DNA of 64,000 nt from Candidatus Thorarchaeota archaeon (GCA_011364905.1 RDNZ01000001.1:130803-194802); one strand, 5' to 3'; counted from the first letter of the stretch, positions 50,990 to 64,000 are shown. Numbers and translations are program-made. Notes: generated from the letters alone by a model not told the origin.

Positions 50990-51688
50990 TTATGCTCTAA
51001 GACGCCGAGCTAAAAGAAAAACTATCACAAAGAATTCAAGAATCACACCAGCGATAAGAAAAGGGGTCAGAGTTGATTCAAATTGCGCTTGGCTATGAGT
51101 GAAACTGTAAACACCCGGATAGTACTTCAAACGCAACGTATACACTGTGTTGTTGGGATACTTTATTGAGGTGTCATATTGTTCGGTGCGTCTAGCCTCC
51201 GTATCATAGTACAGTGATTCCAAGATTTTGTAACCCACCCACTGAGTTGTGCGATGAAACTCATGTGAATATTCCATTGTGAAGTTGAAAAACCAGGAAT
51301 CAGTGTCGTCAATTACTTGGCCATTTTCATATGAGGACAAATCAAACCAGATTGGGCAGTAAGACCATCTATGAATGATAACACCTTGAGAATTAACTAC
51401 TGCCCACTCAGGGATTTTCAAACTGTAGTCCTGTATTGCAGATTCATTAGTCACGCGGAGTCTAGCAATTCCTTCGTTCGTGTCCCATTCCTCTACTGAG
51501 AACTTCACGAACATCTCCCAACCTCCATGATAGTCGATTATCTTGTAGTAAGCTGCCTTTCCAGTGAAGATGCTTCCTGAAGCAGGGTGCACAGCTGTAG
51601 TTGACAGAGTCAAGAAGAATACTATAATGAGTATAGTATGATATCTTCGAACTCCAACCTGCCTACATCGCATTCCTCGATGCCTCAA
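50990..51688 (-). CDS. Secreted protein with C-terminal membrane anchor
   Basis: Signal-like N-terminus, aromatic-rich ectodomain, TM FLIAGVILEFFVIVFLL followed by ARRLRA. Confidence 0.7.
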   Translation of the reverse strand: MRHRGMRCRQVGVRRYHTILIIVFFLTLSTTAVHPASGSIFTGKAAYYKIIDYHGGWEMFVKFSVEEWDTNEGIARLRVTNESAIQDYSLKIPEWAVVNSQGVIIHRWSYCPIWFDLSSYENGQVIDDTDSWFFNFTMEYSHEFHRTTQWVGYKILESLYYDTEARRTEQYDTSIKYPNNTVYTLRLKYYPGVYSFTHSQAQFESTLTPFLIAGVILEFFVIVFLLARRLRA

Positions 51689-51865: not shown

Positions 51866-53080
51866 ATGAATCAAACTGCCAAAAAAAGTGACTCTGCAAG
51901 TCTCCGGACATGGCTCTTCATGTGTCTCATTACTTTTTTTTTTCTGATAGTAATTGTGCTTCTCTACATATTTCGAATAGGTGGTCCTGTCATCTTTGTT
52001 TATTTGGCGGTTTTCTCAATCTTTTGCGTATTTTGTGCCAGTGCAAATGCCAACAAGACTGAGGAGTCCGAACAAGACAAAAAAGAGATACCCGAGGAGT
52101 ATCAATCACTTATCCCAGAAGGATTTCGCAGATTACAGATGAGTGAGTCTCAAAAAACAAAAGCGGCTGACAGCTTGCCTCGAAGACCAATTCCTGGTGT
52201 TGCGCATTCCCTTAGTAGGATTCACGACGTGTTCGATGATGAACCAACAAGACGGCCATCTACGAGACCAAAACCACAAGCTGTACGGGTTCTACGTGGA
52301 GGCGAATTCATTGGTAACAGGATGAGGTTCAAGGTGAAGGTCATCAATGACTCGCCCTATGTCATTACCGATGTTACCGTCTTCTTACTCGCCTATCCAA
52401 AAGAATCTCTGAAATTCGTTGGTGATGATGATAGTGTATCCTTTGCTAAGATCGAGCCCGGAGGATTTCTTAGTCCTACATTTGACTTTCTGCCAACTCA
52501 AGATTGTGTCAAAGGTGAGATTGTTGCAGGGGTTTCATTTCTTGACATGCATGGCAATCCACAAGTGAGAAACACAAAACCATTCATCATAAGATCAGTC
52601 TGTGACTTGCTTCTGCCTTCCAGAATAACACCAGAAGACTTCGAGCTAAGATTGAAAGATCTAGAATGTGGTGAAGTTTCTGTTAAGATAGAAGAATGGA
52701 CTCCTGAAGAAATGTTTGAGAAGGCACTTAGAATTGTTGACGAATCCAACTTCTTTGAAGTCAGTAGCAAAATCGAAGATACTGACGGAATCGCCTTTGG
52801 AAAGATAACGGGCTTTGCTCTCGGAAAGTATACGAACAAGGAAGTTGGTGTTGAAATAGATATTACCGGACCAGTGAAAGCGAAAGGTGCATCGTGCAAA
52901 ATCAAGGTTTCTGGAGAAGACCAAGCCATGATCCTACCTGCCATCGACGACTTGAGAGAACGGCTTAATGCATGGTTATGTCCAATGTGTTCAAGTCCAT
53001 TATCGCTTGCGCAAGTAGAGGACTTGAAAGAAGGGAATGCTGTAGTATGTTCTTTTTGCGATGTCACCATTGGACGCTAA
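51866..53080 (+). CDS. Membrane-anchored protein with adaptin-appendage-like domain and C-terminal Zn ribbon (paralog 1)
   Basis: 2 TM segments, charged linker with RRPIPGV, conserved RGGEFIGNRMRFKVKVIN domain, CPMC...CSFC. Confidence 0.7.
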   Translation: MNQTAKKSDSASLRTWLFMCLITFFFLIVIVLLYIFRIGGPVIFVYLAVFSIFCVFCASANANKTEESEQDKKEIPEEYQSLIPEGFRRLQMSESQKTKAADSLPRRPIPGVAHSLSRIHDVFDDEPTRRPSTRPKPQAVRVLRGGEFIGNRMRFKVKVINDSPYVITDVTVFLLAYPKESLKFVGDDDSVSFAKIEPGGFLSPTFDFLPTQDCVKGEIVAGVSFLDMHGNPQVRNTKPFIIRSVCDLLLPSRITPEDFELRLKDLECGEVSVKIEEWTPEEMFEKALRIVDESNFFEVSSKIEDTDGIAFGKITGFALGKYTNKEVGVEIDITGPVKAKGASCKIKVSGEDQAMILPAIDDLRERLNAWLCPMCSSPLSLAQVEDLKEGNAVVCSFCDVTIGR

Positions 53081-53158
53081 GTTTTACTTGAGCGATGGAA
53101 TACAGCCGCATCAGGACTGTGATGCGAACTCGTGGGTCTACCAAGTAGTCTACTTCTT

Positions 53159-53965
53159 TCAGAGTTCAATGCTGGTCTTTCTTTTCTTTACTAGCCATCC
53201 GATTATGACTAACTCAATGGCAATTGCGGGCAACAAGAGTGTTGTCAACAGCCAGTTTTGTTCGAAGATGATTGGTGGATTTAGGTTGCTGCTTACAAGT
53301 TTCGTTGACAGGCTATTTGTAGATAATGGATTATCAATATCAAAGTGAAAGAAGTATCCTTGTGCAAGGATTCCATGTGACTCGTAAGTTATTGTGTCTT
53401 CATCTTTTCCCATTTCATGATGAAGAGTACAACCTGCGCTAGTTATCGATGTGATATTATACACACGCCATCCTAGTGTGACCGATTCTAGGCCCATCCA
53501 ACTTGTTAGATTGATCCATAATGGTGCACTTTCGTGCACAGAGAGGGTGCTATTAGGGTAGTTCTCATAGAAAGTCTGAACCGTCGTTCCACTGCTTTGT
53601 GTTAGATTCCGTATTACTATATATTGAGGAGGAATGCTTTCGAGCTTCCTCGTCACTTCAAAACGTACGGTGTAGGTTTCTTGGTTCAGGCCACCCCCGT
53701 ATTTATAGACACTTTGATATTCAAGGACCATACCCAGAGGAAATTCATCTATGTTGAGATTCGCATTCGCATGAGACATTGGGAAGGTTGCGAGGATTAT
53801 GATAAAAGTGAATAAAAGACAAGCATTCTTCCGTACCTTTTGTTTCTTCACTTCAATCCTACCCTCTTTGTGCGAAACGAGTCTTCTCCTGTCCACCTTG
53901 CGTGTCAGGATGAATAAAGCTTTACTATTCTTGTCGACATTGCCAGAAATCAACATACGGCACAT
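53159..53965 (-). CDS. Secreted protein with C-terminal membrane anchor (true start probably downstream of 53965)
   Basis: Signal-like segment LLFTFIIILATF, TM LLLPAIAIELVIIGWLV followed by KKRK. Confidence 0.7.
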   Translation of the reverse strand: MCRMLISGNVDKNSKALFILTRKVDRRRLVSHKEGRIEVKKQKVRKNACLLFTFIIILATFPMSHANANLNIDEFPLGMVLEYQSVYKYGGGLNQETYTVRFEVTRKLESIPPQYIVIRNLTQSSGTTVQTFYENYPNSTLSVHESAPLWINLTSWMGLESVTLGWRVYNITSITSAGCTLHHEMGKDEDTITYESHGILAQGYFFHFDIDNPLSTNSLSTKLVSSNLNPPIIFEQNWLLTTLLLPAIAIELVIIGWLVKKRKTSIEL

Positions 53966-53996
53966 TATTAGGTAAGAATCGAAACTGAGCTATTCA

Positions 53997-54908
53997 ATGC
54001 AACCTTTCCCACAGTCCTATGCCGTAGGTGTGATCATCGCATTTCTAGCGATGCTATTCTTTGGAGTCACGAATATATTCTACAAAAGGATGAGTGACGA
54101 CATCAGTGTTATGGACATAATGTACACCAGGATGTGGATTAGCTTACCTGTCGCATATATCTTCGCAGTCGCTACTTCTGGATCGATTAGCTTCACGGTC
54201 CCTCTACACTCTCTCTTTCCGCTTATCCTTTCCATGGTTGTAGGAATTATGATTGGCGACGGGATGTACTTCTATAGTCAAGAGAGAATAGGCGTTGCAA
54301 GGGCATTCCCGATAGCAATGAGCTATCCCTTGTTGGTGTATCTCTTGGCCGCTTTGTTTCTTGGTGAACCTGTTATACCCCAGAGAGTTGTTGGTGCGTT
54401 CATTGTAGTTTCTGGTGTGATTATGATTGCGCGAGCTGAACAGGATGAGAGTAGGGTCAATGAGCGCTGGAACAAAAGTGACTTAGAGAGAGGTGTTGTT
54501 GTAGCATTTCTTGTATTGGTTTGTTGGGCGACAAGTGATGTTGTTTTTCAATTCGGGCTCATAGGCGTCGCACCGGCTGAAGCTAATTTCTATAGGATTC
54601 TTGCCGCTTCTTTGATACTTGTACCAGTTTTCCTCTTCTCATTGAAGGGGAGGAAAACGTATCCAAGCAGGAAGACAATTGGCCTTGCATCATTGATAGG
54701 AATCGTAGCACTCGGATTCAGCCTTATTGCCTATAGTTTTGCAATAAAATACATAGGGGCCACGGTGACCTCATTAATTGTAGCATCAGGACCCATGTTT
54801 ACTGCGCCATTGTCCGTGGTCTACTTGGACGAAGATGTCAACCGAAATGTTGCCTTTGGCACCATGCTGACAATCATTGGTGTTCTGATGGTTATTGTTA
54901 TTTTTTAG
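53997..54908 (+). CDS. DMT/EamA family transporter
   Basis: About 10 TM in two EamA repeats (IGVARAFPI..SYP...LGE; IGATVTS...P.FT). Confidence 0.9.
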   Translation: MQPFPQSYAVGVIIAFLAMLFFGVTNIFYKRMSDDISVMDIMYTRMWISLPVAYIFAVATSGSISFTVPLHSLFPLILSMVVGIMIGDGMYFYSQERIGVARAFPIAMSYPLLVYLLAALFLGEPVIPQRVVGAFIVVSGVIMIARAEQDESRVNERWNKSDLERGVVVAFLVLVCWATSDVVFQFGLIGVAPAEANFYRILAASLILVPVFLFSLKGRKTYPSRKTIGLASLIGIVALGFSLIAYSFAIKYIGATVTSLIVASGPMFTAPLSVVYLDEDVNRNVAFGTMLTIIGVLMVIVIF

Positions 54909-55047
54909 GAGGATCCTTCACCTTTATTTCAGCGGCTGGTTACAGAAAACACAATACTTTTCGAATGAAGGTGTTTTTCTCCGTCCATCAAAGATTTTAA
55001 AGCGCTCCACGCAAAGGTTGAGCTCAGATGAATGACCAATCGGGTCG

Positions 55048-56181
55048 GTGGGATTGGGACCAATGTTACTTATGATTCAAGCTGCTGATAGCCTTCTGAA
55101 TGGGATACTCATTGTTCTCTTCGTATTCTTGGCTTGTATAGCCTTGGGATTGGGATGTACTGGAAGTAGGGAGGTCGATACTGAGAAACGAATCCCAACC
55201 AGTATCAGGAAAGAAATTGGCATGCCTCGTTCTGATGAAAAGCCTGCTGTATCAACTATGAGTTGGCAAGATTTGACTCGAAAACCAGTGCCTAGACGAA
55301 CTGTTCAGACCTCAAGACCAATCCCAGGAGTTTCTCATGCGATAAGGAGAGTCCATACTCTACCCGCACGTGTTGAGAAGCAAGTAAGAGTTGCAAGGGG
55401 AGGAGAATTCGTAGGTAACAGAATGAGATACAAGGTAAAAGTGATCAATGAAACGCCATACATGATAACAGATGTTACAGTTTACCTTCTTTCGTACCCC
55501 AAGAATGCTCTTCGATTGGCTGGAAATAAGGATGATTGCCGATTCGAGAAAATAGAACCAGGAGGATTTCGTTCTCCAACATTTGATTTCTTACCCACTC
55601 AGGATTGTGTTCGCGGCGAAATAGTTGCAGGCGTGTCTTATGTCGACATGACTGGGAAGGCGCACACACTCAGCACGCAACCGTTCATCATTCGTGCAGT
55701 GTGTGATCTTCTCATACCTGACCAAGTATCTCCAGAGGATTTTGAACTCAAGCTGAAATCACAAGAACATGGAGAGATATGCATCAAGGTTGACGAATGG
55801 ACTCCAGAAGAGATGTTTGAGAAAGCCCTTCGAATAGTGGATAACTCAAACTTCTACGAAGTGAGCAGCAATATTGACGTAAAGGATGGCATAGCGTTCG
55901 GTACGATTTCTGGATTTGCTAAAGGGAAGTATACAGGCAAGAGCGTGGCAGTTCAATTGAGCATCAGTGGACCTTCCAAAGAAAAGGGTGCTTCATGTAC
56001 CATCCATGTTTCGGGAGAGGATCAGGCGATGATTCTTCCTGCAATCGATGACCTCAAGGAGCGGTTGAGTGCATGGCTTTGCCCAATGTGTGGCAGTCCG
56101 CTGACACTTGACAATGTCGAGAAACTCAAGGACGGTCAAGTAGTCACCTGTCCTTTCTGTTCTGTGCCGATAGGAAGGTAA
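55048..56181 (+). CDS. Membrane-anchored adaptin-appendage-like protein with Zn ribbon (paralog 2)
   Basis: TM segment, RPIPGV, RGGEFVGNRMRYKVKVIN, CPMC...CPFC. Confidence 0.7.
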   Translation: MGLGPMLLMIQAADSLLNGILIVLFVFLACIALGLGCTGSREVDTEKRIPTSIRKEIGMPRSDEKPAVSTMSWQDLTRKPVPRRTVQTSRPIPGVSHAIRRVHTLPARVEKQVRVARGGEFVGNRMRYKVKVINETPYMITDVTVYLLSYPKNALRLAGNKDDCRFEKIEPGGFRSPTFDFLPTQDCVRGEIVAGVSYVDMTGKAHTLSTQPFIIRAVCDLLIPDQVSPEDFELKLKSQEHGEICIKVDEWTPEEMFEKALRIVDNSNFYEVSSNIDVKDGIAFGTISGFAKGKYTGKSVAVQLSISGPSKEKGASCTIHVSGEDQAMILPAIDDLKERLSAWLCPMCGSPLTLDNVEKLKDGQVVTCPFCSVPIGR

Positions 56182-56205
56182 GCGACAGGGGGTGAATAGA
56201 TCTCG

Positions 56206-57255
56206 ATGCAGACTCCCGAAGTTGGTCTTGCGATGGACCTATTTTTCGGCTTTATCTGTATCTGCTTCTCTCTTCTAAAGGGTGATACGCAAGAGGATAA
56301 AAAATCTGAGAGAAGGAGAAGGTATAGAGCAGAGTATGATAGACCTTTCCATAGTAGAAGATATTCAACCTCGAGATATCCTGCAAGGCCTCCAAGAAGG
56401 CCGATTCCTGGAGTCGCAAAAGCAATCGCTCGAGTATCTGATGAATCCGAGGAGAGCGATGTGAAAGCTCTTCGTGGGGGGGAATTTATCGGAAATCGCA
56501 TGCGGTTCAAGGTAAAAGTGATCAATGACTCGCAATACATGATCACGGATGTCAGAGTGTACCTTCTTTCGTTTCCCAAAGATGCACTCAGATTAGCAAG
56601 TGATGATGATTGTCAGTTCTCAAAAATTGAGCCGGGAGGTTTCAGAAGCCCATCTTTTGACTTCTTGCCAACTCGAGACTGTGTACGAGGCGAAATCATG
56701 GCAGGATTGTCATACGTAGATATGAAAGGGAAGGCTCATACGATTAGCACAAAACCGTTTGTGATACGAGCAGTCTGCGACCTCCTTCTTCCAGAGCAAG
56801 TCAGCCCAGAGGAATTCACATCGAAATTAAAAGAACATCAACATGGAGAAATCGTAGTAAAGGTAAATGAATGGACTCCTGAAGAGATGTATGAGAAAGC
56901 ACTTCGAATTGTGGATGAGTCAAACTTCTACGAAGTGAGCAGCAATATTGACCAATCGGATGGGATAGTTTCAGGAAAGATAACTGGTTATGCCAAGGGA
57001 AAGTACACTGGAAAAAGTGTAGGAGTGCAAATCGATATTACTGGACCTAGTAATAAAAAAGGAGCGAGATGCACAGTGAGGGTCTCTGGAGAGGATCAAG
57101 CTATGATACTCCCTGCTATTGATGATTTGAGAGAACGACTTAGTGCCTGGCTTTGTCCCATGTGTGGATCCGCTTTGACATTACAAAATGTTGAAGATCT
57201 TAAGGAAGGAAAGGTCGTCTGCTGTCCCTTTTGCAGCGTGTCAATTGGGAGATAA
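56206..57255 (+). CDS. Membrane-anchored adaptin-appendage-like protein with Zn ribbon (paralog 3)
   Basis: Short hydrophobic N-terminus, RRPIPGV, RGGEFIGNRMRFKVKVIN, CPMC...CPFC. Confidence 0.7.
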   Translation: MQTPEVGLAMDLFFGFICICFSLLKGDTQEDKKSERRRRYRAEYDRPFHSRRYSTSRYPARPPRRPIPGVAKAIARVSDESEESDVKALRGGEFIGNRMRFKVKVINDSQYMITDVRVYLLSFPKDALRLASDDDCQFSKIEPGGFRSPSFDFLPTRDCVRGEIMAGLSYVDMKGKAHTISTKPFVIRAVCDLLLPEQVSPEEFTSKLKEHQHGEIVVKVNEWTPEEMYEKALRIVDESNFYEVSSNIDQSDGIVSGKITGYAKGKYTGKSVGVQIDITGPSNKKGARCTVRVSGEDQAMILPAIDDLRERLSAWLCPMCGSALTLQNVEDLKEGKVVCCPFCSVSIGR

Positions 57256-57413: not shown

Positions 57414-58100
57414 TTAAATGAATCCTCTACCTGGAGAAGTTCCGACCCTGAGTTGAGCGTATCTTGCGTCATCATGTGGCTTTGCGCCTTGAGCTTGCCT
57501 CTGCAGCTTCTTGTACTCATCTTCACATGTTGATTGAAGCTGAAACTTTGACATACTCAATCGAATCTCATCTTTGGTTATTTCTTCGATGAAGTGTGGC
57601 GGGACAAGAAGGTCAATGTCAGGTTGCGCTTTTATGCGCTCAAGAAACTCTTCAATGAAACCGCCGCCCAATACCAGCCACATGACGTTTTCATTGTCAA
57701 ACCAAATGTCAATCACAAATCCCACCTTCAAACCGTCTGAATCTACGACCTTTATGTCAGAGAGCTTGGAGAAGGTGAAGTCATCTTCGTTTAGTATACC
57801 AGGATCAAGTGTCTTCTTTAAGGACTCACTATCAACCTTCAGGTATACTTTGTCAGATATCGAATCAACATCTTCGGGTCTGACCACAGGATCAATATCA
57901 GGACGTGCATGAATGGATTCAAGAAATTCCTCAATCCTTCCGCCCCCCAGTAGTATGTATTTTAGATTGAGTCTGTTTTCACCACAGCCAAAGATCCAGT
58001 CTTTAACCTCACCGACCTTTTGCCCTTTCGAGTCAATGACGTCCTTGCTTCTAATGTCACTGTATTTTAATTCAGAGCACTGCATTATCCCAATCCTCAT
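57414..58100 (-). CDS. Tandem PRC-barrel domain protein
   Basis: Two repeats of V(I/V)DS.G.KVG.V.D...LGGG.IEEFLE.I.A.PDID. Confidence 0.85.
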   Translation of the reverse strand: MRIGIMQCSELKYSDIRSKDVIDSKGQKVGEVKDWIFGCGENRLNLKYILLGGGRIEEFLESIHARPDIDPVVRPEDVDSISDKVYLKVDSESLKKTLDPGILNEDDFTFSKLSDIKVVDSDGLKVGFVIDIWFDNENVMWLVLGGGFIEEFLERIKAQPDIDLLVPPHFIEEITKDEIRLSMSKFQLQSTCEDEYKKLQRQAQGAKPHDDARYAQLRVGTSPGRGFI

Positions 58101-58217: not shown

Positions 58218-58520
58218 CTAGTAAACTTCTCTTGGACTCTCTTTTAGGCGGTCCGGAAGTTGACCACCCTCGCCGAGGACCTCAAGTTCATGGTCCCGGC
58301 CATAACGACCACCGTCATTACAGAGAAAGCCGGTCTTTGTGATTCCCCTTGCCTGACGCTCAGCAGCGCGACGTGTGATCATCGTCTTGCCTGATGGAAC
58401 GGTCATTATCAACTTTTTCTGGGCTTCATCAATCACCAAAAGAATGGTGTCATCACTGGTACTTCGTGTGGTCTCGAAGAATTGAGAGGTCGACTCATTA
58501 AACTCAAGGTAGACTGGCAT
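58218..58520 (-). CDS. 100-aa protein, possible single gelsolin-like domain
   Basis: Start reassigned to ATG 58520 (GGAGG upstream); SDDTILLVIDE...TRRAAERQARGI pattern. Confidence 0.5.
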   Translation of the reverse strand: MPVYLEFNESTSQFFETTRSTSDDTILLVIDEAQKKLIMTVPSGKTMITRRAAERQARGITKTGFLCNDGGRYGRDHELEVLGEGGQLPDRLKESPREVY

Positions 58521-58624
58521 ACGGAACAAAGGCCTCCAGAAGGCTGTTTTAACTAGAATGAACTTTGGGCGTATATTAATGAATCTCGCGCGAGTCCTTT
58601 CAAGTATTTGCTGTCCCATGATGC

Positions 58625-59308
58625 TCATCTGAGGAGGTGTGCAGTTCCACAATGAGCACAGACCACTGCATCTTCAAACTCTCCGGGCAGCGGAAGCGGC
58701 GCTCCACAATTCTGACACTTGAGATCTCTAATCTCTGATCTCTTTTCCTCAGGGATATTCAGTCTGAAGACGCGCTCAGCGACATCTTGAATAGTTTTTC
58801 CAATTCTCTGCGCAGCTTCTCCAACCGAATTCCTCTCAGGATCACTAAGAGATCCAAGGCCAACTGCTTGGAAGAAATTATCAATTGCGCGACCAATCTT
58901 CCCAAAGACAGAGCCAGCTTTCCAAGACATTACATCTGAAACCTGTAGTTCTAGAAGTTCGCTATCTGGGTGCCCCGGAATCTCATAGCCTCGTTTCCAG
59001 TCGACTCGTTCAGAGCGTGTCGTCGACAACGCTTGACCGCATGAAGGGCAGAATAATTGCCATTCTTTACCAAACAGACCTTTCCTTCTTTTCCTCTCTC
59101 CAATATTATACCAGCACCTTTTGTGTGCATATTTATTGCAATTCGGACAGGAGAAGAGAAAGTAGGTATCCGGCTTGATCTTTGAAGTTCCGCCAGTATG
59201 TATTTTCATGTAAGCTAAATCATCAGGCGTGCTGTTTAGTAGGTACTTGCCACATATGAAACAAGTTTTCCCATCCAGTTTGTTTATCTTATCAGGAGTA
59301 ATCCTCAA
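58625..59308 (-). CDS. Zinc-finger protein (C4HC3 PHD/RING-variant-like finger plus C-terminal Zn ribbon)
   Basis: CFIC...CPNCNKYAHKRC...CPSC and CQNC...CAHC. Confidence 0.75.
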   Translation of the reverse strand: MRITPDKINKLDGKTCFICGKYLLNSTPDDLAYMKIHTGGTSKIKPDTYFLFSCPNCNKYAHKRCWYNIGERKRRKGLFGKEWQLFCPSCGQALSTTRSERVDWKRGYEIPGHPDSELLELQVSDVMSWKAGSVFGKIGRAIDNFFQAVGLGSLSDPERNSVGEAAQRIGKTIQDVAERVFRLNIPEEKRSEIRDLKCQNCGAPLPLPGEFEDAVVCAHCGTAHLLR

Positions 59309-60150: not shown

Positions 60151-63100
60151 TTATCTCCGTCTATAGAGTCCACAGACAATGACAACTAGTGCAACTACTC
60201 CTCCAACAATCAGATAGAGGACTAGCGGATTACCCTCGCCTGGTATGTATGGAGTTGTGGGACCACTACTTTGGTAGGAGCTTGTGTAGGCCACGAAGAC
60301 TGGATCACAAATGATGTCATGTCCGCCCCAGTGCTCATAACCAGAAGTCATGAAGAGCATTGAAGCATCGACTTGCCAATTGGTCACAGAGGATCCAGCC
60401 GCCGACTCGTACATGATGCTGAATGCCCCAATAGGAGCAGTAGATGACCCAGAGGTGTATACCGTCGAGTGACCATCGCCACCATATGTATACGGCAGTC
60501 CGCCCATTGTGACACTAGCATAGGGACGGTCTTCTGAGCCAAAGTCATAGTATGAGGCTTTCAGACTAGCGCTATTCGTGTCTGTCACGGGTCGATCACC
60601 AGCCGTGTATCTGGTCCCGGTAGCAGTCCCTAAGACACCGAAGAAGTTCACGGCCAAACTCCGATTCTCCAGAATACTGTTGTCATAACCATACAGTGTC
60701 CATTCTCCAAAGCGTTGATCCACTTTGAATGAAACTGCGTGGTTCCAAGTATTTGGATCCTCAGCATCATAAGTGACCATGTCGACACCAAACGTGATGT
60801 CAAATGACATCTCATCCACAGTCGCTCTTGTTACTGAGTAATCGAAGGAGGTGCTGTTCAAGCCAATCGAACCCTCATATGACTGTCTGAAGTCCCACGC
60901 TCCTCTAAGTGCGGATGAGTGCTCAACGCGGAGAGGGTAGATTGTCACATTGACATCATAGATTGAAACTCCAAAAGTCACAGAGGTGTCTGGGTCTACA
61001 CGAACGTTTCCTGAGTTATTGGTAGCTGCAAACGGTCTTCTAAACTCATAACTGCCAATCTCGTCAATTAAGACAAGATGAGTAACCTCATCAGTCGTAA
61101 CTTGACCGTTTACGATTGAGAAGTCAGGAGCACTTGGAGTAGGACCAATTCCATCGTTGAAGATCAGTAGCCCTGCATACTCTGCACGGAACCGAGCAAG
61201 TGTAGCTTGGGTTTCAGAGATGCCAACCCAGTAAGTCTGCCTTGTGCCCCAAGCAAACCATGTATTCGACCACTTACCATCTTCAAGACCAGGAACTTTG
61301 CTTACATCAAGAGTCCGATTCTTGGCTGTCCATGCTACGTACTCATATCCAGGTATTGGGATTTCATTGTCCATATCAGCCCATAGGGTCTTCTGAATTT
61401 GGCTCATTTCAGAAGAACCGACAAGAGAACCATCCGTGTGATACCAGTAGAAGGTCTCGTTTGCGTTGAACCACATGTCCATCTGTAGAACTCCCATCCA
61501 GTTCTCTGACACGAATTCGTCTCCATTATTGCCAGGAGTTGGGTCAAATCCAAGTGCGACAAACATTCCACTGACTGTAACGTTTCCCCAATCAGACCAG
61601 TAACCAGTCCGTTTGACATAGTATTGGTCGTTGGTTGTGTAGATGTTCCCATCGAGGTCGATTGCACCATCCTTTGTTACAGTCCAGATTGGTGGTATGT
61701 AGACATTAACATCGCCAAGCCTGAGATTTCTTGGGCTCCAGAGTGTGTCGCCTGACAGGTCAAGTTTTGTTGGCACATCGGTCCAAGAGGCAACAAGCTG
61801 GTCGTACTCAGCAGGAGTAAGCTGACCAGCCGAGACCATCCACCAGGGATAGCTCCATGTAGCATTATTCGGGTCCCAAATCCTCACATTAGTCAGTAAT
61901 CCCACATTCACCTTGGCTTTGTCTATGACCATCGAAGGCGCAGCAGGGTCAAAGCTGAATATGATGCTTAGAGTTGTGAGATCGCGTTGTATGTTTATGT
62001 TATAGCTGGAGACGTGTATATGGTTTGCAGGAATTGGTACGCTCCAGAGAAGGGTACCTCCCTTCTCGTACATAGTTAGCCTGTAAAGAGACCGCTCTAT
62101 TGGTAACCCACTCGTGAAGTTGACACCAATCGTATGAGTGATATCAACCCGCCAATAGTTGGTTTCATTTGAGTCCATGTATGAACCTTGCACTTCTATT
62201 ATGACGTCCTGTAGTTTTTGGGTGGCATTGAACAAAGCTGGCGGCAGAGCAGTCCCTGAGGGAACTTCGTAGACCATTGAACCATTGATTTCGTTCATAT
62301 TTCTATGAACCAACATAGTGAGATTAAGTAACTCACCCTGTTGAGCAACGTCAGCAATTTGGCCTGCGTCGTTAAATACGAATGCTTCAACGAATGCCGA
62401 TCTGAATGCGAGCTTCATTGTTCCTTTGGTCTTTATTTCAGGCCGAGCAGTGATTGGTTTGCTGTTTGTGTCGAGAACAGTGACCAGCGACATTTCAGGC
62501 TGAATTGTTCCTCCGTAGCCAAAGCTTGGGTCCATGTCAGTTTCATTCGTGAAGTAACCACCCCACTGAATGAGGTGACGGTTTGAGGCGCTGGTATAGG
62601 CATGGTTGACTACAAAGTACTTGCTTAGATCTATTGTGGAATTCTCAGTAACAAGGATGTGGGGAAACCACATTCCCGCTCCACCACCAAGGTCAATCCA
62701 TTCCCATGCGACATCAATATAGCCAGCCAGCACATAAGAATCAGTGGCATTGACCTTAAAGAACATCATAGGATAGAGGTCTGTTTCTAGTTGTTTCCAT
62801 GCTACGTCCCTGTTGAACAACACGGATTCACTAACATCCATTCCGACAGGATATGTCAAATTCCTCTTGATGTGATAGGCTGGATCCCACGTTAGTTGAG
62901 CAAATGGAAGGAGGGTTGAACCGATTTCGACATTTGACATCATTCTAACGATGAATGTGTCGTTGACATCCACATAGTGAATGATATGGCCATCTTCGCC
63001 TACAATGTCTGCATAATAGTAATTGGGTAGAGAGAAATCTGTAGGAATCACAGGAGAACCAAATCCTATCGGAGGACTCACGTAAGCGCCAGTTTCAGCC

Positions 63101-63717
63101 GCAACCAACCAACTGGAAGCAACTGGACGGCCTTCTGTGTCGACAACTTGCATCCCAGTCGAGAAAACTCCAGGTGCGATCGGTGATTCGTATGTGATAG
63201 CGAAAACTGCGTGATAGATATTAGCATCCTCAGTGTAGCTAGAGCTCAAGGAGTCGAGGGTGATGAAGTCTGAGGAGCGCGGTTCCTCTGATCCAGGAAT
63301 GTAGCGATAGGCTAAACAATTCCATCGGTCGGCTGTCAGATTATACTCAAGACCGAAGAATGCAGCTCGGTCGGTCCTACCTGTTCCCCAAAACTGAATC
63401 GAATCCAGATCTGTTTTCAAAAATGACTTGGGAACAGAAATGTCAACGAGTAGATCATCGCCAACATTCACTCTGTAACTGTTTTCGGCAATGTCAGTCA
63501 TGTTGTTTGCATACAATATCGTGATGCTTGGTTGAGGTCCGAAAATCCAATTCGATTGTTCCTCAGAGTGTTCAAACTGAGTAACATTGTTTTCTTCCAC
63601 TCTCCATGCCACGCCCATTGCAGGGTCAGCACCATCTTGCGCGACTGCTGGTGCTATTGCTATAGCGAAACTGATGACAAGCATTGCAATTAGCGTAATT
63701 GTGTTTACTTTTCTCAT
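60151..63717 (-). CDS. Large cell-surface (S-layer-like) protein
   Basis: Signal peptide, many N-x-S/T sequons, Ser/Thr/Pro linker, C-terminal TM followed by RRR. Start at MRKVN (GAGGTG upstream). Confidence 0.75.
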   Translation of the reverse strand: MRKVNTITLIAMLVISFAIAIAPAVAQDGADPAMGVAWRVEENNVTQFEHSEEQSNWIFGPQPSITILYANNMTDIAENSYRVNVGDDLLVDISVPKSFLKTDLDSIQFWGTGRTDRAAFFGLEYNLTADRWNCLAYRYIPGSEEPRSSDFITLDSLSSSYTEDANIYHAVFAITYESPIAPGVFSTGMQVVDTEGRPVASSWLVAAETGAYVSPPIGFGSPVIPTDFSLPNYYYADIVGEDGHIIHYVDVNDTFIVRMMSNVEIGSTLLPFAQLTWDPAYHIKRNLTYPVGMDVSESVLFNRDVAWKQLETDLYPMMFFKVNATDSYVLAGYIDVAWEWIDLGGGAGMWFPHILVTENSTIDLSKYFVVNHAYTSASNRHLIQWGGYFTNETDMDPSFGYGGTIQPEMSLVTVLDTNSKPITARPEIKTKGTMKLAFRSAFVEAFVFNDAGQIADVAQQGELLNLTMLVHRNMNEINGSMVYEVPSGTALPPALFNATQKLQDVIIEVQGSYMDSNETNYWRVDITHTIGVNFTSGLPIERSLYRLTMYEKGGTLLWSVPIPANHIHVSSYNINIQRDLTTLSIIFSFDPAAPSMVIDKAKVNVGLLTNVRIWDPNNATWSYPWWMVSAGQLTPAEYDQLVASWTDVPTKLDLSGDTLWSPRNLRLGDVNVYIPPIWTVTKDGAIDLDGNIYTTNDQYYVKRTGYWSDWGNVTVSGMFVALGFDPTPGNNGDEFVSENWMGVLQMDMWFNANETFYWYHTDGSLVGSSEMSQIQKTLWADMDNEIPIPGYEYVAWTAKNRTLDVSKVPGLEDGKWSNTWFAWGTRQTYWVGISETQATLARFRAEYAGLLIFNDGIGPTPSAPDFSIVNGQVTTDEVTHLVLIDEIGSYEFRRPFAATNNSGNVRVDPDTSVTFGVSIYDVNVTIYPLRVEHSSALRGAWDFRQSYEGSIGLNSTSFDYSVTRATVDEMSFDITFGVDMVTYDAEDPNTWNHAVSFKVDQRFGEWTLYGYDNSILENRSLAVNFFGVLGTATGTRYTAGDRPVTDTNSASLKASYYDFGSEDRPYASVTMGGLPYTYGGDGHSTVYTSGSSTAPIGAFSIMYESAAGSSVTNWQVDASMLFMTSGYEHWGGHDIICDPVFVAYTSSYQSSGPTTPYIPGEGNPLVLYLIVGGVVALVVIVCGLYRRR

Positions 63718-64000
63718 ATATTCCACCTCACCAAAAGCCAAGCGTGCCACACATTGCCTTCTCAAGGAATACTGTGCTGGAAGTCAGATGCTGGCTGTTG
63801 ATTTCTTGGTGTATCATCAAAGGTACTTTCCTAGTATCCTCTGATGGAAAAAACCGACAAACTGCAAGTAAATACATACATCTTTGCATATAATGTATTA
63901 TGGATGAATCATCTATAGCTCATCGATGACTATTGTTGACTACTCCACATTAATCCACAACGATGAACAATGATTTCTTCTCGCTCACTATATCCAATTT

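Follow-up and report, generated by a model that had tools for sequence, protein, structure and literature searches.

Membrane-tethered hinge and ear proteins with a predicted adaptin-appendage fold in Thorarchaeota

Eukaryotic appendage ("ear") domains serve as recruiting hubs whose ligands are short motifs in accessory proteins, and the origin of vesicle coats and adaptors is an open question of eukaryogenesis. Ear-type domains have been reported from archaea in several studies. Liu et al. (2021; 10.1101/2020.10.19.343400) described Asgard proteins that join Vps28/Vps23 to adaptin/COPI C-terminal domains and to an E3 UFM1 ligase. Eme et al. (2023; PMC10307638) found Asgard Adaptin_N together with standalone Alpha_adaptinC2 and B2-adapt-app_C matches that were "sparsely distributed," and found no ear directly after Adaptin_N in Asgard archaea. 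Moreover, Makarova et al. (2024, mBio; PMC10936438) identified "adaptin (TRAP-beta) appendage" regions, composed of IG and TBP parts, in several archaeal ESCRT (endosomal sorting complex required for transport) systems, with examples such as Methanosalsum WP_013898571 (ear and Zn ribbon) and WP_013898578 (ear, transmembrane [TM] linker, and GOLD), described Asgard ear fusions with Vps28-C and longin, and assigned the appendage domain to the last archaeal common ancestor. Here, we analyzed a stretch of 64,000 nucleotides (the window) from the Asgard genome of a Candidatus Thorarchaeota archaeon (GCA_011364905.1, RDNZ01000001.1:130803-194802), in which three neighboring paralogs on the plus strand, designated EAR1, EAR2, and EAR3, are encoded. 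Overall, they are best explained as membrane-tethered proteins composed of a hinge, an ear, and a zinc ribbon, which may act as a membrane-proximal docking platform.

The open reading frames (ORFs) of EAR1 (404 amino acids [aa], 51866..53080), EAR2 (377 aa, 55048..56181), and EAR3 (349 aa, 56206..57255) lie exactly where a first-pass annotation of the window had placed three close paralogs, all on the plus strand. The layout it had described (a variable TM N terminus, a charged linker, a conserved domain of ∼230 aa, and a CPMC...CxxC tail) was recovered feature by feature in all three proteins, which align across the entire conserved part. In the three-way alignment, the other two paralogs were 58% and 60% identical to EAR1 overall, with a mean column identity of 70%, and the likeness was much higher from RGGEF onward than overall. 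The conserved domain is bounded by RGGEF and LRERL, and the proteins end in CPMC...C(P/S)FC. According to the ORF, alignment, and hydropathy data, EAR1 starts with hydrophobic segments at residues ∼15 to 36 and ∼40 to 61, followed by a hinge with the motif RRPIPGV (52181..52201; motif census and invariant alignment columns), a beta-sandwich (residues 140 to 250, 52283..52615) and an alpha/beta platform (residues 251 to 368, 52616..52969), both mapped via alignment onto the EAR3 model, and a C4 zinc ribbon (CPMC...CSFC, 52970..53077) recognized by four invariant cysteines and weak zinc-ribbon family matches. By the same kinds of data, EAR2 has a single hydrophobic anchor at residues ∼16 to 37 and comprises SRPIPGV (55312-55332), sandwich (55384-55716), platform (55717-56070), and zinc ribbon (56071-56178). 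EAR3, the paralog used for structure modeling, has its anchor at residues 5 to 25 and its hinge at residues 26 to 85, with RRPIPGV (56395-56415), sandwich (56461-56790), platform (56791-57144), and zinc ribbon (57145-57252). Orthologs of EAR2 in other Thorarchaeota genomes were 72 to 90% identical. Homologs were so numerous (310 at E ≤ 1e-3 in a word-indexed search, the best at 3e-227, and 465 clusters at 50% identity in an exhaustive search) that the pattern is far beyond chance.

To describe the domain structurally, an AlphaFold2 model of EAR3 (model id ma770da37504a) was built from a 43-sequence alignment. The mean predicted local distance difference test (pLDDT) score was 80, with values of 82 to 95 over the domain, and the model comprised a TM helix (residues 5 to 25), a disordered stretch (43 to 82), a beta-sandwich (86 to 196), an alpha/beta unit (201 to 313) formed successively by one helix, one strand, a second helix, four strands, and a third helix, and a small zinc ribbon. 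When the model was compared with the PDB by Foldseek, the top 14 matches were all appendage chains (E values of 2e-11 to 9e-9), including a COPI appendage as the best match (9qpq_H, 1.8e-11), beta2-adaptin (1e42, 2e-10), alpha-adaptin (2vj0/1w80, ∼3e-10), and gamma-COP (1pzd/1r4x), with ear alignments of 232 to 259 columns each and sequence identities of 7 to 14%. VIA-align, a second fold search independent of Foldseek, placed the alpha-adaptin ear 1w80_A on EAR3 in one rigid alignment of 216 residues (Z of 16.4, root mean square deviation [rmsd] of 3.6 Å), followed by the beta2 ear (Z of 13.9, 4.3 Å, 208 residues), gamma-COP (Z of 13.6, 6.5 Å, 215 residues), and BBS9 (Z of 12.3, 4.0 Å, 188 residues), whereas the AP-4 beta ear 2mj7 was aligned with the platform only (model residues 190 to 318; Z of 13.0, 2.6 Å, 116 residues). 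Thus, the structure prediction and fold searches proposed in the first-pass annotation returned the appendages of alpha-adaptin, beta2-adaptin, beta/gamma-COP, and BBS9 as the best whole-domain matches.

Both subdomains contribute to this likeness. The strands at residues 86 to 196 align with the sandwiches of 1w80, 3h1z, and 1r4x, and the GAE domains 3mnm and 2ymt match the EAR3 sandwich at Z values of 9.6 to 10.3. In VIA-align, unrelated Ig-like folds spanned just residues 77 to 190, with sandwich-only matches reaching a Z of at most 12.6, while other alpha/beta folds on the platform reached at most 9.6; the best unrelated folds matched one EAR3 subdomain each, not both. Furthermore, the single rigid alignment with 1w80_A indicates that the ear-type mutual arrangement of sandwich and platform is present in the model. 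A generic Ig-type fold lacking the platform subdomain, which the first-pass annotation had named as evidence against an adaptin-like ear, was not what the model gave, since a platform is predicted. Its by-eye landmarks of adaptin likeness also agree with the structural alignment at the level of segments (sandwich start at ∼86, junction at ∼190 to 210, and last strand and helix at 287 to 313 in EAR3).

Regarding the side of the membrane, hydropathy analysis revealed two hydrophobic N-terminal segments in EAR1 and one each in EAR2 and EAR3; EAR2 and EAR3 are N-out/C-in signal-anchor proteins, and EAR1 has a two-helix hairpin with both ends inside. The EAR3 anchor has an acidic N-terminal side and is followed by KKSERRRRYR, the reverse of a cleaved signal peptide. 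A topology census covered 144 representatives of the EAR family, 106 of which have a TM-like segment ahead of the ear. Among these 106, the 15 residues after the last TM segment contained a mean of 3.24 K/R versus 0.44 in the 15 residues before it; 82 of the proteins had more K/R behind the segment than ahead of it, 13 had the same number on both sides, and 11 had fewer. More than 150 residues precede the last TM segment in 72 representatives, and N-glycosylation sequons occurred at 1.69 per 100 aa in those long N-terminal parts versus 0.73 in the portion with the ear. Long relatives with a C-terminal ear are numerous, and their N-terminal parts are of extracellular type, including PQQ/BamB-like propellers, NosD beta-helices with PKD domains, SBBP propellers with TSP3 repeats, and SBP_bac_5. 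For instance, P0162 is arranged as a signal peptide, SBP_bac_5, a Ser/Thr linker, a TM helix, KRRG, a linker, the ear, and the zinc ribbon. Three independent lines, namely, the positive-inside charge bias, the C4 zinc ribbon, and the ectodomains fused across the TM helix, hence place the ear in the cytoplasm, the opposite of the extracellular location that was to have spoken against the first-pass annotation. Its picture of a membrane-anchored hinge with an appendage-like ear facing the cytoplasm is accordingly upheld by both the model and the topology evidence, and we consider it highly probable that the Thorarchaeota ears combine the appendage fold with a cytoplasmic location. In addition, cysteines were observed near the cytoplasmic end of the anchors (ICICFSLLKG in 51866-52050, FLACIALGLGC in 55048-55160, and FCVFCASA in 56206-56280), with one cysteine-bearing anchor column invariant across the three paralogs.

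The first-pass annotation had also called for a phyletic survey. When 301 genomes of the phylum were searched with a profile, the EAR family was detected in 151, including 72 of the 76 genomes sampled from the family to which the window belongs, 62/68 of a second large Asgard family, and 5/5 and 6/7 of two others, while it was not found in several other families (0/28, 0/21, 0/19, 0/11, and 0/11 genomes). The named members (Thorarchaeota, Helarchaeota, Njordarchaeum, and "Promethearchaeota") are all Asgard, and the family appears to be confined to Asgard archaea. Judged from sequence, the ear and zinc ribbon of most members form the predicted C-terminal tail, on the cytoplasmic side, of a surface protein that crosses the membrane once. 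About one-quarter of the representatives have no TM segment, their ear being joined to soluble modules, i.e., LRR, TPR, WD40, TIR, an EAP30/Vps36-like module (P0239), an E3_UFM1_ligase-like module (P0163), or a second ear, as in P0128, a soluble chain with two ears. Fusion to HEAT repeats also occurs in the family. A further metagenomic protein, P0270 (493 aa, in the cluster of P0232), consists of an ear and zinc ribbon preceded by an N-terminal near-threshold Arf-family match (21.2 bits versus a cutoff of 22.3; E of 2e-4) and may represent a GTPase-like module fused to an ear.

The hinge of the EAR proteins is 60 to 80 residues long, basic, and disordered. In EAR3, residues 43 to 82, in front of the ear, have a pLDDT of <50 and are charged and, outside the PIPGV motif, little conserved; [RK][RK]PIPGV is the sole conserved part of an otherwise variable hinge. 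The pattern P[IVL]PG[VIL] was present in 107 of 120 close homologs, at a median of 21 residues (range, 19 to 44) before the domain start, and in 3 of 143 wider representatives, and it occurred nowhere else in the 156,589 residues of the proteins searched. No Pfam or NCBIfam model fits the EAR domain itself, with weak zinc-ribbon matches at the C terminus only: the Sec23/Sec24 zinc finger PF04810 stayed below its gathering score (13.6 bits versus a cutoff of 25 in EAR2) and matched weakly in 9 of 33 members (best E of 3e-4). Of the 144 representatives, 98 carry the zinc ribbon behind the ear. Outside the ribbon, cysteines next to aspartate (D158-C159 and C191-D192 in EAR3) were conserved at ≥90% in a diverse 33-member alignment and share columns in EAR1 and EAR2, one lying in the sandwich and the other at the sandwich/platform junction; they may reflect a second metal site or structural packing.

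The genome from which the window was taken encodes six EAR family members, three of them inside the window. The fourth is another TM-hinge-ear-zinc-ribbon paralog of 338 aa, located apart from the tandem set (L005:1501-2517, minus strand, contig C36). The fifth is a 775-aa soluble protein with approximately six CxxC...H zinc-module repeats followed by an ear and zinc ribbon (L004:94-2421, plus strand, contig C59), and open frames of ∼760 aa with this type of ear recur in most sampled Thorarchaeota genomes; the next gene encodes a paralog of the repeat part with a weak B2-adapt-app_C match (E of 0.045). The sixth is a 407-aa protein composed of HEAT repeats, a linker, and an ear, without a zinc ribbon (L006:1072-2295, plus strand, contig C57). 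It was matched to the EAR family by hhalign with a probability of 99.5% (E of 3.7e-23 over 227 columns) and to HEAT_2 with 40.7 bits versus the Pfam cutoff of 27.7, and its length of ∼406 aa is kept in at least 175 public proteins across Thorarchaeota, which are annotated as HEAT-repeat proteins only. Its AlphaFold2 model consists of helical repeats, a linker, a sandwich, and a platform, and its best Foldseek match was full-length gamma-COP in the COPI coat (5a1u_E; E of 2.1e-12 over 422 columns). As modeled, this HEAT-ear protein has the trunk-hinge-ear layout that Eme et al. (PMC10307638) could not detect. Its gene has a Ras-family GTPase gene on one side and a WD40 gene on the other.

The neighborhood of the tandem set was compared across 35 Thorarchaeota loci, gathered with the closer-homolog alignment A2. 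The recurrent order is AOR, (a small exported protein), EAR1, (a small exported protein), an EamA transporter, EAR2, and EAR3, followed on the opposite strand by a PRC-barrel protein, a 144-aa protein, a zinc-finger protein, and a histidine phosphatase. In the window, the EamA-family transporter gene (53997..54908, plus strand; Pfam EamA E of 9e-40) lies directly upstream of EAR2, and such a gene is upstream of and codirectional with an ear gene in 25/35 loci, making the transporter a possible operon partner of EAR2. The minus-strand neighbors are a double PRC-barrel protein (57414-58100), the 144-aa protein (X144, 58218-58652), and a zinc-finger protein of 227 aa that weakly matched a prokaryotic RING (58625-59308); together with EamA, these genes are retained in ∼20 to 30 Thorarchaeota loci, which may be due to function or to slow genome rearrangement alone. 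In a quick tree with only moderate branch support, the ears clustered according to their place in the locus (the first and the second after EamA, the one upstream of EamA, and the third); the position labels required 16 changes on the tree versus 34.7 after shuffling, and 0 of 200 shuffles were as low. The tandem order and positional ortholog groups are kept across Thorarchaeota genera, and since the ears group by position, the duplicates are older than the split of several of these genera.

Some further neighbors deserve description. X144 is up to 95% identical across Thorarchaeota genomes, above the conservation of the ears, and it had no Pfam match and no solved chain at E ≤ 1 by sequence; its candidacy as a Thorarchaeota gelsolin was dropped. 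The small proteins flanking EAR1 (50990-51688 and 53159-53965, both on the minus strand) have a signal-like N terminus, a sequon-bearing body, a C-terminal TM segment, and a very short basic tail; neither matched a known family, and each recurs in place in some Thorarchaeota loci. They were also considered as split-off EAR ectodomains, an idea that was rejected for want of support, as their mutual BLAST E value was >1 and none of the homologs collected for either protein joined it to an ear. A 1,204-aa sequon-rich protein (60151-63765, minus strand) with a signal-like N terminus, one C-terminal TM helix, the tail YRRR, and no ear looks like a surface protein.

Several results weigh against interpreting the EAR proteins as docking proteins related to eukaryotic adaptors. 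The structure of the EAR ear is a prediction, and the argument for kinship with eukaryotic ears is one of predicted fold alone. The Pfam ear models PF02883 (Alpha_adaptinC2), PF02296 (Alpha_adaptin_C), and PF09066 (B2-adapt-app_C) gave no match to EAR1-3 at E ≤ 1, were absent among the matches listed for 33 diverse family members and from six distant members scanned singly, and gave nothing above the cutoff across the whole genome. Sequence searches of the PDB with single proteins gave nothing for the ear, those with HMMER profiles (A2 and A3) returned no appendage chain at E ≤ 10, and a language-model search placed eukaryotic ear clusters at rank 3 to 5 with scores of 0.75 to 0.78, which is below the reliable level and serves as a lead only. 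The PIPGV motif, because its spacing to the ear is regular, suggests an extension that cooperates with the domain, as opposed to a linear motif free in its position, and the EAR3 model leaves the hinge (pLDDT of <50) undocked from the ear. Moreover, ESCRT, GTPase, or ubiquitin genes were found neither within ∼10 kb of EAR1-3 in the window nor in the neighborhoods of two long-form members, one of which had two EutA/FtsA-like genes upstream and the other tandem surface-protein genes. Given an identity to ears of just 7 to 14% and the lack of a sequence-profile link, the fold could be convergent, i.e., a generic Ig-like sandwich joined to a helix-grip domain without common descent, whose platform might bind lipids or small ligands like KA1 or Bet v 1; indeed, alignments of the platform with KA1 and Bet v 1-like chains reach Z values of 9.5 to 9.6. 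However, both subdomains and their arrangement align together to five ear families (216 residues, rmsd of 3.6 Å), the AP-4 beta ear exceeds any other alpha/beta fold on the platform by 3.4 Z units, and methanogen appendage-region proteins, for which no sequence link to EAR was found, reach HHpred 98% to beta-COP and AP2 beta (PMC10936438, Table S3). Convergence is therefore improbable in our judgment, and homology between the EAR ears and eukaryotic ears is likely on the strength of the model.

With respect to function, the EAR ear most plausibly docks soluble partners, because eukaryotic ears are motif-binding hubs and the EAR ear is held at the membrane. An ear on a hinge just beneath the membrane could dock short motifs of cytoplasmic partners and would thereby couple membrane proteins to sorting or remodeling machinery, with the ectodomain-less tandem paralogs as putative dedicated membrane anchors for such partners, perhaps acting with the codirectional EamA transporter. 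Protein sorting would be the likeliest context, as the ESCRT-II-like and E3-UFM1-like fusions of relatives echo published Asgard fusions. By analogy with eukaryotic ears, such a docking-hub function is a serious candidate that we advance tentatively. The binding-type ectodomains of most members, which are single pass (solute-binding protein, beta-propellers, beta-helix, and PKD), would also suit a receptor output module, in which the ear and zinc ribbon act as a signaling or clustering domain, an outside ligand alters ear-ear or ear-partner contacts, and the ectodomain-less paralogs regulate the long receptors or serve as their decoys. Soluble tandem-ear proteins (P0128) fit ear-ear contacts, and a TIR fusion exists, but no kinase, nucleotide cyclase, or DNA-binding output was fused or adjacent in the cases examined, and we regard this alternative as unlikely. 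The ear might instead link surface-coat proteins to actin or another cortical scaffold, positioning them on the cell body or protrusions. Many large, sequon-rich surface proteins carry it as their cytoplasmic tail, and published observations on Asgard cells include an actin cytoskeleton, protrusions, and a coat of amorphous protein (PMC9834061); since no actin, profilin, or gelsolin gene was found beside the ear genes examined and the neighbor X144 matches no solved gelsolin structure at E ≤ 1, a cytoskeletal anchor seems quite unlikely. It is very improbable that tethered ears self-assemble into a submembrane lattice that bends the membrane into buds or vesicles, as a proto-coat would: several tandem paralogs have long been retained, and elsewhere in this genome the HEAT-ear protein is encoded between a Ras-family GTPase and a WD40 protein, but the ears of AP2 and COPI are generally known to recruit rather than to form lattices, EAR1-3 contain no propeller or solenoid cage element, and the present results give no sign of self-assembly or membrane bending.

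A broader evolutionary reading, to which we would assign a low probability, is that cargo-borne ears were an ancestral way of recruiting sorting machinery, with Thor/Loki-type surface proteins carrying their own hinge and ear. If so, the ear would draw in soluble factors (for instance, the HEAT-ear protein, small GTPases, or ESCRT modules) by which the protein that bears it is sorted, clustered, or internalized, the tandem paralogs without ectodomains would amount to a minimal set of adaptors resident in the membrane, and the eukaryotic adaptor would have arisen once the ear moved from cargo to a soluble solenoid trunk. Previously, Asgard ears were known only as sparse standalone Pfam matches or as parts of soluble ESCRT-linked fusions. 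The present analysis adds one ear family that escapes the Pfam models, is nearly universal in sampled Thorarchaeota, and occurs mostly on membrane proteins, where it follows a hinge on the predicted cytoplasmic side. Pfam-based counts of Asgard trafficking domains are thus underestimates. The 266-residue ear and zinc ribbon and the seven-residue conserved motif offer small, expressible targets for asking what an archaeal ear binds.

The novelty of a prokaryotic ear implied by the first-pass annotation was set too high, as archaeal appendage domains have been published (Liu 2021; Eme 2023; Makarova 2024). In the literature searched, we found no Thorarchaeota tandem set of ectodomain-less TM-hinge-ear-zinc-ribbon proteins, no PIPGV motif, no description of the ear as a common cytoplasmic tail of type I surface proteins, and none of a near-universal Thorarchaeota presence of an ear family that escapes Pfam. 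Like the standalone ears of Eme et al. (PMC10307638), the EAR ears are Asgard ear-type domains without an Adaptin_N trunk, and one Alpha_adaptinC2 match in that study (Lokiarchaeales or Helarchaeales) ends in CxxC...CxxC as the EAR family does; however, those ears were found by Pfam models and are sparse, whereas the EAR proteins escape such models and are near-universal in sampled Thorarchaeota. The Asgard fusions of adaptin/COPI C-terminal domains reported by Liu et al. are matched by the E3_UFM1 fusion P0163, and the EAR family, like the published Asgard fusions, includes EAP30/Vps36-like (P0239) as well as E3_UFM1-like members.

Among solved structures, the EAR ears are predicted to share the two-subdomain fold, in the same mutual arrangement, with the AP2 alpha/beta2 and COPI beta/gamma ears (1W80, 1B9K, 1E42, 1R4X/1PZD, and 9QPQ_H), which likewise are C-terminal to a disordered hinge, cytoplasmic, and beside the membrane. 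Unlike those ears, EAR is tethered by its own TM helix and not by a HEAT-repeat trunk in a heterotetramer (no alpha-solenoid trunk of the HEAT or Adaptin_N type was found in EAR1-3, which carry a TM anchor instead), adds a C4 zinc ribbon, and has no Pfam ear-model match. BBS9 of the BBSome (GAE and platform; 6VBU chain 9) also shares sandwich and platform (Z of 12.3 over 188 residues), but its module follows a beta-propeller within a large soluble coat-like complex, and the match is weaker than those to AP2 and COPI. The archaeal appendage proteins of Makarova et al. (2024) have the IG and TBP region in common with EAR, in some cases with a Zn ribbon and in some cases linked to a TM segment. 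EAR1-3 differ from those systems in having no adjacent Vps4/ESCRT-III and no ESCRT fusion within the three window proteins, and the EAR family differs in its order, with the TM segment or ectodomain first and the ear last, in its Thorarchaeota-specific hinge motif, and in its ectodomain-less tandem paralogs. Therefore, while the ear domain itself is already published for archaea, its arrangement in Thorarchaeota is new.

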